A stretch of DNA of 45,030 nt from an uncultured archaeon (GTDB lineage: Archaea; Altiarchaeota; Altiarchaeia; IMC4; SCGC-AAA252-I15). This document shows positions 1-45,030 of the stretch, one piece after another; position 1 is the stretch's first letter, and the number at the start of each line of letters is the position of its first letter. The DNA is taken from positions 1 through 45,030 of the forward strand of contig CABMCB010000100.1 in NCBI GenBank assembly GCA_902384455.1. The letters run 5' to 3'. A program made the position numbers and the translations under genes. The notes under the pieces are model-generated. The model had not been told where the DNA came from, did not search any database, and worked only from the letters and a program-made list of their open reading frames with translations.

Positions 1-5
1 AAGAC

Positions 6-110
6 CACCCCACACATTTTACACATAATGTCAATAGCAAAACAGTGAAAAACAGTGTGTAGACAAGGGAAAACGTGTCTTCTGAAGTGTGGGATATTCC
101 ACGGAATAGA
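6..110 (+). repeat. Left inverted terminal repeat (ITR)
   Basis: CACCCCACACATTTTACACATAATGTCAATAGCAAAACAGTG...GATATTCCACGGAATAG is the reverse complement of 44926-45030 with a few mismatches and indels. Confidence 0.95.
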
Positions 111-128
111 CATGAGTTTGACATTGTA

Positions 129-344
129 TCACAACTTTGGCGAGTGTTTTATACATTGTTTGAACACACAGGTGTGTGTTTTCTTTATCTCCCCCTCTTC
201 ACCTCCTTCAACGTCTTCCATACAGTGTGGGTCGTCACAATCATCAATACAGATTGGACATGGTGTATGACCACAGATAGTACATGTGGCAGACATACAT
301 TCGTCACAGTTCTTTATCTCTTCATTGACTGTGGGATATTCCAT
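129..344 (-). CDS. Small Cys-rich hypothetical protein
   Basis: Several CxxC pairs; fits the minus-strand gene run. Confidence 0.6.
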   Translation of the reverse strand: MEYPTVNEEIKNCDECMSATCTICGHTPCPICIDDCDDPHCMEDVEGGEEGEIKKTHTCVFKQCIKHSPKL

Positions 345-348
345 AGAA

Positions 349-732
349 TTATCCTTGACTCGCCGTCTTGATGTTTATCTCACCTTCTGATTGTAGTGTT
401 TGCAGTATGTCTAACACACTCCGTAGTTCATTGCCGCTTGCATCGTAGAATCTGTCACCCCTTTGAAACCCTTTAGTGAATGTAGTAAGCAATGCAATGG
501 TTTTTGCGTAGGTATCTTCACGCTTGTCGTCTTGTTGACGCATATCGTATAGACTGGGGAAGTGATAGATTCTAGTGTTGAACGTTTTCCCCGTGCGTAT
601 GTCTGGCCCGATTGTTTCGCAGGGGGCAGTACGGCATTCTCTACACTCAACTTGTTGCATGCCGTTGTATACTCCACAGTGACAACACTTGTATCCGGGC
701 GCTATATACTCTGAATCAATGTATGTACACAT
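349..732 (-). CDS. Hypothetical protein with N-terminal Zn ribbon
   Basis: CCHC...CREC motif; tightly packed with neighbours. Confidence 0.65.
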   Translation of the reverse strand: MCTYIDSEYIAPGYKCCHCGVYNGMQQVECRECRTAPCETIGPDIRTGKTFNTRIYHFPSLYDMRQQDDKREDTYAKTIALLTTFTKGFQRGDRFYDASGNELRSVLDILQTLQSEGEINIKTASQG

Positions 733-905
733 AAGTCACATCCAGTGCAAACGAAGATGCCTGTTCCGTTTTCGATTCCAGCTCTGTAGTGTATGTTTGA
801 TATGGCTCCGCAACGTGGACAATGATGATGAATGTCAAGCGTCGGTTGTACTCCTAGTTTTGCTGTACATCCGTCGCCAACTTTGGGCGGTTCGTAGTAT
901 TCCAC
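702..905 (-). CDS. Small Zn-ribbon protein
   Basis: CPRC...CTGC. Confidence 0.55.
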   Translation of the reverse strand: MEYYEPPKVGDGCTAKLGVQPTLDIHHHCPRCGAISNIHYRAGIENGTGIFVCTGCDLCVHTLIQSI

Positions 906-1004
906 AGAATATCTATCCTTTTAGAATCTTGTGGAGATGCCAACCGATGATAATACCAGTTGTCATCATTAGGGCGCCGAAGTAGAGTGCTTGTGCTACA
1001 GGGT

Positions 1005-1406
1005 TCATTCCTTTTCATCATTGTAACGGTGGTCGTGTGGCTCTTTTGCCCAATCTTCTATTGGTATACTCGAACTACACGGGTTTTCTTGTGGTAAGTT
1101 AGGTATAGGTGCCCAGTATTCAGGCTGTTCACGCGTTTCGTAGTAGTATTGATTCCCGCGTATTCCGTATGATTCGTCATACACTTTATTGTCGCCCGGT
1201 ATGACGGTTCCCCCTCTGTAATGGCCAATGAGCACGTCAGACCAGTTTTTGCTGTAGAACAGAACGTCAATGTTTACTGCGGGTCGTTCTTTTGACGTTC
1301 GAGTCCACGTGTTGGTGCTGCGTTTTAGAATGAATTCTTCGTCTACCTGTTGAAGGAAGTTGTTCATCAGTTTGAGGAGTTGTCCCTTGAATTCCTCCTG
1401 TGTCAT
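1005..1406 (-). CDS. Hypothetical protein
   Basis: 133-aa ORF in the minus-strand run. Confidence 0.6.
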   Translation of the reverse strand: MTQEEFKGQLLKLMNNFLQQVDEEFILKRSTNTWTRTSKERPAVNIDVLFYSKNWSDVLIGHYRGGTVIPGDNKVYDESYGIRGNQYYYETREQPEYWAPIPNLPQENPCSSSIPIEDWAKEPHDHRYNDEKE

Positions 1407-1620
1407 TGGGTGGTATAGCCTTTCTTGTTTCTATCCCGTGTTTCTTTAGTATCCGTGATATATATCCTTGTGAAACGCCATACAGTTCTGCAATCTCTTT
1501 TTGAGGCATATCCCCTTCGTAGAATTCGATAACAGCCGCTTCGAATTCTTCAAGGCTTTTGGATATACCTTCTGTTGAGTTGAGCCGCTTGTGTACTTGT
1601 TGGAGAAAGTTGCTTGCCAT
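1267..1620 (-). CDS. Helix-turn-helix DNA-binding protein
   Basis: MPQKEIAELYGVSQGYISRILKKHG is a typical HTH; a box P copy lies 11 bp upstream. Confidence 0.75.
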   Translation of the reverse strand: MASNFLQQVHKRLNSTEGISKSLEEFEAAVIEFYEGDMPQKEIAELYGVSQGYISRILKKHGIETRKAIPPNDTGGIQGTTPQTDEQLPSTGRRRIHSKTQHQHVDSNVKRTTRSKH

Positions 1621-42607: not shown

Positions 42608-42739
42608 TGGAAACCCAGATACCACATACACTCAATCATCACAAGTGTGAACTGTGTGACTTTGACAACTGTGACTGCCCACACTGTATTCACATAAAAC
42701 GTATGCGCACTGACCCCCAGATAAAACTTTGGTGGAACA

Positions 42740-42922
42740 ATGAAAACGTTGCAAGTGAACCCCCAGTGGACCAAAGGTAACTGTCCCGGTTGTGGGTTGA
42801 CCATCTACATTGATGATGTCAACAAGAGAACCATGCATCAAGACCCACTTTGCACCTGGTACACAGACTTTTGCTCCAAAGCTAAGTGTGAAGGTAAAGT
42901 AGAACTCATAGAACACACATAA
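42740..42922 (+). CDS. Small Cys/His protein
   Basis: CPGC...HQDPLC. Confidence 0.5.
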   Translation: MKTLQVNPQWTKGNCPGCGLTIYIDDVNKRTMHQDPLCTWYTDFCSKAKCEGKVELIEHT

Positions 42923-42953
42923 TCATCAACCTGTATTCCATGGAATAAAACCA

Positions 42954-44108
42954 ATGAAGTGCCGCTCATACATCAAACACCCTAGGTTCCGCAAAAACAT
43001 AACCTCTTCACAGTTCACACCTAAACAACTAGCGGCATTCTACGGATTCCCGCCCAATACTACAGGTATTGGTAAGAAAGTTGCCGTTATCGAACTTGGC
43101 GGCGCCTACAACCAAGGTGACCTTGATACGTACTTCAAGAGCCTAGGCCTAACTGTAAAGCCTGTTGTGTTCCACTCTATCGACGGAGGGCAGAACACTT
43201 CAGACGGACCTGATGGCGCCGACGGTGAAGTCATGCTCGACCTCTGTGTCATTGGTGCAATGGCGCCAGGTGTTGAGATGCATTGCTACACAGCACCCAA
43301 CACTGACCAAGGATTCCTTGACGCCATAAACCAAGCAATCACCGACAAGATGGATTGTATCAGTATCTCATGGGGCGCACCCGAAGACCAATGGAGCGGT
43401 CCCATCGTTACTGCATTCAATGCTGCCTTTCAAAAGGCTGGTGCTGCGGGTATCACGGTCACTGTTGCTGCTGGTGACAATGGTTCTACCGATGGCGAGA
43501 TTGGAAACCATGTTGACTTCCCAGCAAGCTCGCCCTTCGTCCTTGCTTGTGGAGGTACCAGTGTTCTAAGCGTTTCACCTGTGAATGAAGTTGTTTGGAA
43601 CGACGGAAGCGCTGGCGGTGCAACAGGTGGCGGTGTTAGCGGTGTACTAGGCTTACCCACGTGGCAATCAAAAGCAAACGTGCCTGGAGGTAGAGCTAGA
43701 GGAGTACCAGACGTAGCCGGCAATGCAGACCCAAACACTGGTTGGATTATCATGATTGACGGGCAACAATACGTCATTGGCGGTACCAGTGCCGTTGCTC
43801 CAATGTGGGCCGCTCTAGCCGCCTGCCTAAGTCAGGTTGTTGGTAACGTTGGATTCCTGAATCCCTTCCTGTATAACCAAGGGGGTTGGGCACGTGACAT
43901 CGTCTCAGGAAACAATGGGACTTACACTTCACGCGTGGGTTGGGACGCATGTACTGGCAATGGCGTTCCAATTGGAACCAAATTGCTTGCAATGCTACAA
44001 CCAACAGTACCACCCACGCCACCTACGCCACCCACACCGCCCAAACCAACACAACACACCATTGTTGTCACTGGCTCTATCACAGTTGACGGCAAACCCG
44101 TCACATAA
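42954..44108 (+). CDS. S53 (sedolisin/kumamolisin) peptidase, catalytic domain only
   Basis: DGEVMLD (ExxxD), SISWG, AAGDNG, RGVPDVAG, GGTSAVAP, GWDACTGNG; PT-rich tail. Confidence 0.92.
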   Translation: MKCRSYIKHPRFRKNITSSQFTPKQLAAFYGFPPNTTGIGKKVAVIELGGAYNQGDLDTYFKSLGLTVKPVVFHSIDGGQNTSDGPDGADGEVMLDLCVIGAMAPGVEMHCYTAPNTDQGFLDAINQAITDKMDCISISWGAPEDQWSGPIVTAFNAAFQKAGAAGITVTVAAGDNGSTDGEIGNHVDFPASSPFVLACGGTSVLSVSPVNEVVWNDGSAGGATGGGVSGVLGLPTWQSKANVPGGRARGVPDVAGNADPNTGWIIMIDGQQYVIGGTSAVAPMWAALAACLSQVVGNVGFLNPFLYNQGGWARDIVSGNNGTYTSRVGWDACTGNGVPIGTKLLAMLQPTVPPTPPTPPTPPKPTQHTIVVTGSITVDGKPVT

Positions 44109-44233
44109 CATTAACCCGGTACCTCTGGCCTGCGAGCTAGGGGCTAAGTCGTACGCGCTAGGCAAGCAAGAGTCTCCCCCCCGACTCTGGGCTCCCCGAA
44201 AGTATAGAGCCGGAACTTTCTCAAGAGTGACCA

Positions 44234-44449
44234 ATGAGGATAACTAACAAGGTGACACGCGTCGAACAATGTACCTGTGACCACACTGATTGCTCAGAAG
44301 TCAAAGATGTTGACCACAACATGGTCGCGCCAAAGGACTGGACGCAAATATCAGACCTCCTAGGAGCAAAAAACTACCACTTGTGTCCAGTGTGTTGGAA
44401 GAAACTACTGGAATTCTTCAAGAATCCAAAGGCGAAGGAGAAAGTATAA
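44234..44449 (+). CDS. Small Zn-finger protein
   Basis: CDHTDC...LCPVC. Confidence 0.6.
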   Translation: MRITNKVTRVEQCTCDHTDCSEVKDVDHNMVAPKDWTQISDLLGAKNYHLCPVCWKKLLEFFKNPKAKEKV

Positions 44450-44853
44450 TGGTAAGCTGGAAAACGACCGTAGCAGGAATCATCGCAGGAGCAATTCCAA
44501 TACTTCAAACAATAAGTGGTTCACTGCAAGTTGGGGGGCACATAAACTGGTATCAGATTGCCTTCGGCCTAGCTATTATGGTGCTAGGTGTGTTCGCTAA
44601 AGACATTGGCGTTCCCCCAGCGGCACTTGCAATCATATTCACACTGTCAATCCTCAGTCCACTAACAGTTGCATGCTCAAGTGGTATCAAAAACACAATT
44701 GGCGCAACCTGCCCGGCCAATGCAGTGTGTGACCAGGTTGACTTTGGTTACGGAGTGTTCACTGCCTGTCTATCACCCAGTGATATGCCAAAGTTACAAG
44801 CTGCTGCCGCTCAAAGTAGAGCACGAATCACACAAGAAGACGCGGGAAAGTAA
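44449..44853 (+). CDS. Holin-like membrane protein with internal lipobox-like motif
   Basis: AAGGAG RBS; SWKTTVAGII...LGVFAKD, third hydrophobic stretch ending LTVAC. Confidence 0.5.
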   Translation: MVSWKTTVAGIIAGAIPILQTISGSLQVGGHINWYQIAFGLAIMVLGVFAKDIGVPPAALAIIFTLSILSPLTVACSSGIKNTIGATCPANAVCDQVDFGYGVFTACLSPSDMPKLQAAAAQSRARITQEDAGK

Positions 44854-44925
44854 CCCACACTTCGACACACAGTCAAGAGCCCTCGCGACACACGGTCCCG
44901 GGGGCTTCCCTGTATAAAAATCGTG

Positions 44926-45030
44926 ACTATTCTATGGAATATCACACTCCAGGCAGAGACGTTTTCCCTTGTCTACACACTATTTTTCACTGTTTTTGCT
45001 ATTGACATTATGTGTAAAGTGTGTGGGGTG
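44926..45030 (-). repeat. Right inverted terminal repeat (ITR)
   Basis: Reverse complement matches 6-110. The counterpart of left positions 1-5 (AAGAC) is missing, so this end may be 5 nt short. Confidence 0.95.

Follow-up and report, generated by a model that had tools for sequence, protein, structure and literature searches.

A 45-kb linear element with a tectivirus-like protein-primed polymerase and no recognisable capsid or packaging gene points to a large, unannotated and probably viral family

What kind of genetic element pairs a tectivirus-like DNA polymerase with 45 kb of sequence in which no capsid, tail or packaging gene can be recognised? The question is raised by contig CABMCB010000100.1 of assembly GCA_902384455.1, which we analysed at its full length of 45,030 bp (hereafter the window) and which is one entire contig (C100) of a 103-contig, 2.41-Mb bin attributed to an uncultured archaeon. 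Our answer, to which we assign a probability of about 0.6, is that the window represents all or nearly all of the linear double-stranded DNA (dsDNA) genome of an uncultured virus that infects a murein-walled bacterium, and that this virus belongs to a large unannotated family with genomes of roughly 35-48 kb. That this family is a distinct protein-primed lineage is well supported; from its many membrane proteins and the lack of recognisable tail genes we infer a tailless, lipid-containing virion. Known protein-primed linear dsDNA viruses of bacteria comprise the small tectiviruses and the phi29-like phages. The family described here is three times larger than the tectiviruses, with a morphogenetic module devoid of any recognisable hallmark gene, and, if truly viral, would expose a blind spot in marker-based virus discovery together with a new solution to capsid building and packaging. 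Open reading frames (ORFs) are named below by their start coordinate, such that 21665 denotes 21665-22525.

Like the genomes of Tectiviridae, the window is linear dsDNA bounded by inverted terminal repeats (ITRs; 1..110 and 44921..45030). The arms at 6-42/44994-45030 (37 nt) are 97% identical and those at 39-80/44955-44996 (42 nt) 95% identical; aligned end to end, the first ~80 nt are near-identical, the left repeat being strong from base 6, and a weaker likeness extends to about 110 nt. The terminal 90 nt had no match within the central parts of the relatives examined. Bases 1-5 of the left end (AAGAC) have no counterpart at the right end, a surplus that reflects either ragged assembly or a few terminal bases missing from the right. 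Between the repeats, genes diverge from about 19.2 kb, running leftward to the left end and rightward to the right end. No tRNA gene was found in the window, and no Rfam family, including the packaging RNA (pRNA), reached its gathering score.

The leftward arm encodes the protein-primed family B DNA polymerase (pPolB; 747 aa; 14682..16925, minus strand), found in 21 related loci at a median identity of 72%. It matches a PHROG DNA polymerase profile (E 2.7e-29) and, just short of the 25.8-bit cut-off, Pfam DNA_pol_B_2 (E 7e-6, 25.6 bits). Searched by tblastn against 50,697 phage records, it gave 14 matches, all to actinobacterial Tectiviridae (Microbacterium, Rhodococcus and Streptomyces phages) at 25-30% identity and with the exonuclease and polymerase motifs kept; phi29-like polymerases went unmatched at E 1e-5, and no match was found among the 72,556 plasmids of PLSDB. 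A FastTree phylogeny (midpoint-rooted, with no support values) groups 17 of the 18 full-length family polymerases in a single clade adjoining those of Rhodococcus phage Toil, Microbacterium phage DesireeRose and Streptomyces phage WheeHeim. A divergent 845-aa pPolB encoded by one related locus (L040:2755-5289(-)) is only 19% identical to that of the window and belongs neither to the family clade nor to that of the tectiviruses; the structural genes of the same locus are 40-76% identical to their counterparts, which argues for polymerase replacement within the family. If viral, the family would also be a connecting piece in the evolution of replication modules of the tectivirus type, such replacement included.

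Two further conserved genes lie upstream of the polymerase. A very basic 254-aa protein (17612..18376, minus strand; isoelectric point (pI) 10.3; 15 loci) is, by position, a candidate terminal protein; Pfam, PHROGs and NCBIfam gave no family match for it or its relatives. The first gene of the leftward operon (18478..19164, minus strand; 228 aa) is, by position relative to tectivirus records, a candidate single-stranded DNA-binding protein. Replication would start at the ITRs from the terminal protein. Toil, WheeHeim and DesireeRose have the same divergent layout, in which the last two genes of the leftward polymerase arm are small.

How widespread is this arrangement? A pattern scan of Joint Genome Institute (JGI) metagenomes returned 152 matching stretches, 74 of which were confirmed, yielding 69 loci; the family is common in soil, peat, rhizosphere and sediment metagenomes. 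A 15-kb core is syntenic across these loci, with gene order kept from the polymerase to a 542-aa protein and with variable outer arms. With three exceptions (polymerase, RadA-like ATPase and transglutaminase-like enzyme), the core proteins went unmatched in Pfam, PHROGs, PDB sequence profiles, the 50,697 phage genomes or the 72,556 plasmids. Pfam searches with 69 diverse members of 13 core families returned only ATPase families and Ice-binding-like domains, PHROG searches with 59 core-family members returned no match, and 58 further ORFs of relatives added only a second RadA-type ATPase (in L038), a polymerase, MazG and Ice-binding domains. A megablast search of 19200-44000 against deposited phages was also negative, and neither the abstracts surveyed nor passages of one review (PMC11476376) describe a 35-48-kb pPolB family of this kind. 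The initial annotation of the window had proposed a distinct lineage about three times the size of a tectivirus; the shared synteny and the mostly orphan core support the former well, and the latter holds family-wide, with contigs reaching 48 kb.

Is the absence of hallmark genes genuine? Searches of Pfam and PHROGs with 88 ORFs, and of NCBIfam with 49 of the 88, found no terminase, portal, HK97 capsid, tail tube, tape measure, baseplate or FtsK/A32 ATPase; PDB profiles, too, gave no HK97 capsid, portal or terminase large subunit, structure prediction of single proteins having covered two, 21665 and 23939. The lone PHROG 'portal' match (7864-8328) turned out to be a NUDIX domain match, and those to 'head and packaging' profiles were to peptidoglycan (PG)-binding domains. 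No double-jelly-roll capsid protein was found by Pfam, PHROGs, NCBIfam, PDB profiles or tectivirus hidden Markov models (HMMs). When the tectivirus major capsid protein (MCP), ATPase, 'tail' protein, terminal protein and single-stranded DNA-binding protein were compared with the window's ORFs by tblastn and HMMs, the polymerase alone was held in common, and hhalign gave three core families a probability below 1% against the tectivirus MCP. The FtsK/HerA-type (A32-like) packaging ATPase typical of Tectiviridae was likewise not found by Pfam, PHROGs, NCBIfam or the tectivirus ATPase HMM, and at 45,030 bp the window lies outside their genome range of about 15-18 kb. The first reading of the sequence, which listed ITRs, a pPolB and membrane, spike and lysis genes beside missing terminase, portal, HK97 capsid, tail and FtsK/A32 ATPase genes, is thus upheld on both counts, the former by alignments, profile matches and hydrophobic segments. 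Its yardstick, tectiviruses of about 15 kb with a packaging ATPase, also agrees with the records, which measure 15.5-18.3 kb and in each of which an MCP is annotated alongside a packaging ATPase or terminase.

Our candidate for a shell (capsid) subunit is 21665 (21665..22525, plus strand; 286 aa), the universal and most conserved protein of the family. It is present in all 29 loci that span its position, as a tandem duplicate in four, and has 234 homologues (50-80% identity), the longest of their contigs measuring 48,290 bp. At the N-terminus, a short conserved helix is followed by a variable linker rich in Gly, Tyr, Pro and His and by a 150-aa beta-rich C-domain with 50 invariant columns among 67 sequences and an invariant GGYGQ at its end. 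In three-copy complex prediction, the C-domain scored interface values (ipSAE) of 0.85, 0.65 and 0.81 (median 0.81) against 0.00 for the best control, with a partner predicted local distance difference test score (pLDDT) of 83 or more and with 91% or more of the contacts common between runs. In calibration, 20 of 30 proteins with a structure solved as a pair and 1 of 23 solved as single chains reached the mark applied, counts that hold only roughly here, the calibration having been based on two copies and the tool's own alignments. The touching surfaces of two copies differ in the model, which implies a head-to-tail contact, and the third copy barely contacts its partner, a geometry compatible with an open head-to-tail chain or with a ring of more than three copies. 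The protein otherwise stands alone: its family profile found nothing meaningful among PDB sequences, tblastn of the C-domain against phages gave no match at E up to 10, and none was found among the 72,556 plasmids, among GTDB species representatives or, for eight family members, in PHROGs.

Directly downstream of 21665, in 37 of 37 loci, lies a gene for a transglutaminase-like enzyme of the Cys-His-Asp type (22551..23102, plus strand). Pfam Transglut_core (PF01841) is matched by 19 of 25 family members (best E 1.6e-6) and the window copy scores below threshold; by core domain the family belongs to this transglutaminase-like superfamily. The family profile retrieved nothing meaningful from PDB sequences. 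C118 and H152 are invariant; as third residue most members have Asp, and the window's clade has Cys.

The conserved core encodes a single ATPase (19447..20388, plus strand; 313 aa), which occupies the position held in actinobacterial tectiviruses by the packaging ATPase; their rightward arm runs from two small genes through the packaging ATPase and a small membrane protein to the MCP. It resembles bacterial RadA/Sms in its N-terminal zinc finger (CxxC...C motifs) and RecA-like core with a Walker A motif (GDPGAGKT), and differs in having an acidic tail and in lacking the C-terminal Lon-protease-like domain, the match ending at RadA residue 275 of 452. Support comes from Pfam KaiC (9e-12), PDB RadA (E 9e-19; residues 3-264, zinc finger included, aligned to RadA residues 10-275) and NCBIfam sms (1.5e-25; 89.9 bits against an equivalog cut-off of 403). 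A KNRHG motif, of the KNRFG type known from RadA/Sms, is also present. There are 377 database homologues, the first 120 of them family-specific and on contigs of up to 48 kb, which form a clade specific to this element family. A six-frame scan for Walker A motifs found two real ORFs, this one and the polymerase, although a deviant P-loop could escape the pattern. The initial annotation had the window encode no dedicated packaging ATPase, which agrees with the searches for the FtsK/A32 type; it overlooked this RadA/Sms-like protein, which might act as a helicase in replication or as a packaging motor. In a distant relative, a second RadA/KaiC-type ATPase of 236 aa that lacks the N-terminal zinc-finger part (L038:9149-9856(+)) lies directly upstream of the 21665 homologue.

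Further virion-like features lie to the right. Two paralogous acidic proteins (32270-33535 and 33565-35052, plus strand; 23 loci each) appear to be spikes or receptor-binding proteins, with a near-identical 130-aa N-domain, a Gly linker and divergent beta-helix-like C-domains. Over about 55 aa they match PHROG 4577 'tail protein' (4.5e-5 and 1.4e-8) and they are also similar to tailspikes of tailed phages; spike 33565 found nothing meaningful among PDB sequences. The N-terminal 'anchor' segment recurs in a 109-aa protein (23119..23448, plus strand), aligned with the spike N-domain by hhalign at a probability of 71% (E 3.7e-5, 39 columns). In relatives, the anchor N-domain is fused to Ice-binding-like beta-helices (Pfam PF11999, 1e-57 to 1e-64; L017:13383-15563, L017:15608-16618, L027:15274-16284 and L012:4361-5371), which indicates modular exchange of receptor-binding heads. 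A membrane-anchored protein with two PG_binding_1 domains (28096..28947, plus strand; Pfam 2.3e-26; 26 loci) and a right-arm cell-wall cluster (38295..44108, plus strand) complete the set. The cluster comprises a PG_binding protein with a weak glucosaminidase-like match (38295-39794), a CHAP protein (39823-40341), an Rv2525c-like glycoside hydrolase (41969-42607) and a subtilase (42954-44108). By Pfam, the window holds five murein-directed or protease genes. We count these genes, the spikes with their tail-protein segment and the lack of relatives among 72,556 plasmids towards a viral character.

On the preferred reading, the particle would be built around the universal 21665 and not around HK97 or PRD1-type proteins. 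The 150-aa beta domain of 21665 would form a shell or capsomers by head-to-tail polymerisation, and the transglutaminase-like enzyme encoded next to it would process or cross-link it. The many small membrane proteins would contribute an internal membrane or envelope; hydrophobic segments occur in ORFs 20933, 23451, 23939, 25679, 26517, 28096, 30015, 31653 and 44383. Three small conserved Arg/Lys-rich proteins of pI ~12 (28977-29237, 29513-29791 and 29806-29994, plus strand) are candidate DNA-condensing proteins and may compact the genome in the particle. Vertex or surface spikes would share an N-terminal anchor and carry swappable beta-helix receptor-binding domains, murein-binding and -cleaving proteins would serve entry and release, and the hexameric RadA-like ATPase would assist as a replication/recombination helicase or as a genome-packaging motor. 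A ParB-like protein suggests an extrachromosomal, linear-plasmid prophage stage. A bolder version of this scheme, which as a whole we consider unlikely, places the virion outside the known realms: a small, extremely conserved beta-domain shell protein on a low-complexity linker would be covalently cross-linked or matured by the dedicated transglutaminase-like enzyme, with the invariant C-terminal Gln, Lys157 and Lys191 as substrates, and the task of loading the genome would fall to a hexameric translocase derived from RadA/Sms, in place of a terminase or FtsK-type ATPase. If so, a widespread soil and peat virus family has been invisible to virus-detection pipelines.

Several points weigh against the viral reading. 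Four runs of one study, searched for the ends of the window, yielded only contig fragments of 170-410 nt at a depth of 2-5, none covering the terminus. Passing the complex prediction reflects model confidence and not binding, and the AlphaFold2 model of 21665, built on a 28-sequence alignment, is of low confidence (pLDDT 43.5); no capsid fold emerged from the analysis. The location of the ATPase at the junction of replication and structural operons makes its role ambiguous. Scans of IMG/VR with the polymerase, the lipoprotein 23939 and the 21665 alignment found no relatives, the polymerase giving one 57-residue fragment match; absence from this resource means that the family carries no feature that virus callers recognise. 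The ParB, RadC and NUDIX genes of the left arm are equally typical of plasmids. Lastly, sigma70-like promoters show no overall enrichment (25 found against 21.9 expected), near-consensus examples at the divergent point (19188-19160) and before 20446 notwithstanding.

Could the window instead be a derived member of the tectivirus lineage (Varidnaviria), icosahedral with an internal membrane, whose jelly-roll capsid protein and packaging ATPase have moved beyond sequence detection? Under this possible but unlikely alternative, the role of 21665 would be that of a single-jelly-roll major or penton protein, and the FtsK-type motor would have given way to the RadA-like ATPase. Polymerase affinity, genome layout and the many membrane proteins all suit it, and the tandem 21665 duplicates of four loci recall viruses with two single-jelly-roll capsid proteins. 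One such comparison, by description only, is with the haloarchaeal SH1-like Sphaerolipoviridae, which are described as tailless viruses with ~30-kb linear dsDNA, ITRs, terminal proteins, two types of major capsid protein, an internal membrane and vertex spikes; the likeness lies in the two tandem 21665 genes of some relatives, and the difference in that these are archaeal viruses of halophiles. Sphaerolipoviridae encode an A32-like ATPase. None was found in the window, and the failure of the MCP and ATPase HMMs, the hhalign probabilities below 1% and the missing FtsK/HerA ATPase all speak against a hidden tectivirus module. In relation to actinobacterial Tectiviridae, the linear ITR-bounded dsDNA is the same and the pPolB is the only detectable gene in common, whereas the window is 45 kb instead of 15.5-18.3 kb, lacks a detectable double-jelly-roll MCP or FtsK-type ATPase, has an ATPase of RadA/Sms-like type and carries a transglutaminase-like enzyme, Arg-rich proteins and beta-helix spikes in its core.

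The accessory lipoprotein 23939 (23939..24964, plus strand) was considered as a minimal double-jelly-roll capsid protein. Its AlphaFold2 model is confident (pLDDT 90.3; predicted template-modelling (TM) score 0.83) and comprises two 8-stranded jelly-roll-like beta-sandwiches with an Ig-like domain inserted at 145-219. Foldseek retrieved turret proteins of Sulfolobus turreted icosahedral virus (STIV), PRD1 P3, a tectivirus MCP and picornavirus capsids, all at TM scores of at most 0.23, and PDB sequences gave nothing meaningful. The family is diverse (607 representative clusters) and its lipobox is conserved. The protein is present in 19 of 35 spanning loci and missing from the other 16; an accessory gene of this kind is not the capsid protein, and the candidate was ruled out.

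Were the window instead a protein-primed linear plasmid, or some other mobile element, with a core that encodes a system for cell-surface adhesion, secretion or cell-wall remodelling, this would account for the lack of any recognised capsid or packaging gene, for the ParB-like partition protein, RadC and NUDIX, for the silence of IMG/VR, and for the lipoprotein, adhesin-like beta-helices and Ice-binding domains. We regard it as improbable: neither the polymerase nor 21665 has a relative among 72,556 plasmids, and no conjugation or secretion ATPase was found by Pfam or the Walker A scan. Moreover, the compact two-arm layout, viral polymerase kinship, small Arg-rich proteins, a universal protein predicted to self-polymerise and modular spikes are typical of virions.

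That the window is a tailed phage (Duplodnaviria) with protein-primed replication, its HK97 capsid, portal and terminase being too divergent to detect, is very unlikely. The spikes' match to the PHROG 'tail protein' segment favours it, as do the nearest ESM-Atlas clusters to 21665 and 27185 (scores 0.95 and 0.90), hypothetical proteins mostly labelled Uroviricota that serve as leads only. There is, however, no terminase-like or further P-loop ORF beyond the RadA-like ATPase, no portal-sized acidic protein and no tape measure, tube or baseplate family, and the PHROG searches with 59 core-family and eight 21665-family members were negative. The phi29-like phages (Salasmaviridae) share protein-primed replication of a linear ITR genome with the window. 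They are small and tailed, and the searches of the window gave no counterpart of their HK97 capsid, connector, pRNA or packaging ATPase.

Which organism, then, is the host? The bin itself is archaeal, with rpoB split into ORFs of 506 and 619 aa and an RpoB' 68-79% identical to that of Altiarchaeota metagenome-assembled genomes, and is probably chimeric. Murein-binding and -cleaving domains, a bacterial-type RadA/Sms, a sigma70-r4 helix-turn-helix (HTH) and the lipobox point, from the sequence, to a bacterial host, and homologues occur in bins named Nitrospiraceae and Alphaproteobacteria. That the window is a virus of the bin's Altiarchaeota-like archaeon, for which the split rpoB, the RpoB' affinity and the several archaeal virus families that pair ITRs and pPolB with no known packaging ATPase could be cited (Ampullaviridae and Ovaliviridae among them), is the least credible alternative of all, given these bacterial traits, the tetranucleotide correlation of C100 with the bin (Pearson 0.34 against a median of 0.94, the lowest among 36 contigs of at least 20 kb), the confinement of PG_binding_1 within the bin to C100 and the polymerase's absence from all 20 other genomes of the host family. 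A host link through gene 13521-14042 and bin contig C73 was rejected, C73 being itself a 5.2-kb compositional outlier. Further tetranucleotide outliers in the bin, each a group of its own, are C69, C63, C4/C68 and C25/C40/C59.

Expression in the presumed virus may be organised by a family-specific palindromic operator of 14 nt in about 38 copies. The palindrome ATTCC-RYR-GAAT (the core of TATTCCNNGGAATA; 12-14 nt, TATTCC-NN-GGAATA) gives 60 strand matches at 38 sites, against 0.03 expected. Examples lie at 96-107, 16932-16943, 27167-27178, 29996-30007, 32250-32261, 42935-42946 and 44929-44940, the first and last placing one copy in each ITR. Of the 38 sites, 17 precede a start codon by at most 60 nt, and in many cases the palindrome ends 7-9 nt short of the codon. 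The remaining 2.37 Mb of the bin hold three matches; among large related loci, the palindrome is kept by 12 of 19, with 7-32 strand matches apiece, and lacking from a clade of seven more distant ones. It is probably the operator of a dimeric regulator specific to the family.

The rest of the core consists of conserved genes on the plus strand. Two small Gly-rich or membrane proteins (20446-20958 and 20933-21451) are conserved in 37 and 39 loci, respectively. Beyond the lipoprotein follow a Zn-ribbon protein (24954-25505), an N-terminally anchored helical protein (25679-26197), protein 26194-26460 and a C-terminally anchored protein (26517-27164), all conserved orphans. The universal helical protein 27185 (27185-28099; 304 aa) is likewise an orphan, present in 18 of 18 loci and with 221 homologues; its own and family profiles found nothing meaningful among PDB sequences, and tblastn against phages gave noise only. 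The last core gene encodes a conserved, Gly/Ala-rich and partly hydrophobic protein of 542 aa (30015..31643), whose family profile found nothing meaningful among PDB sequences. ORF 29312-29503, amid the Arg/Lys-rich genes, is unconserved.

The variable leftward arm (349..14480, minus strand) holds small genes that are mostly unconserved among relatives, including an HTH/sigma70-r4-like protein (1267-1620), a Fis-type HTH protein (3779-4192), NUDIX (7864-8328), the ParB-like protein (9587-10657) and a RadC-like JAB protein (11154-11663). In the right arm, an oligoribonuclease-like DEDD exonuclease (36118..36972, plus strand; Pfam RNase_T 5.7e-8, NCBIfam oligoribonuclease 8.4e-28) is preceded by two zinc-ribbon motifs and is unconserved in the related loci examined. 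An intergenic repeat of ~40-50 nt with a GC-rich hairpin core, which may be a terminator or processing site, occurs at 4326-4377, 5789-5832, 9063-9098 and 40343-40395, in opposite orientation in the two arms.

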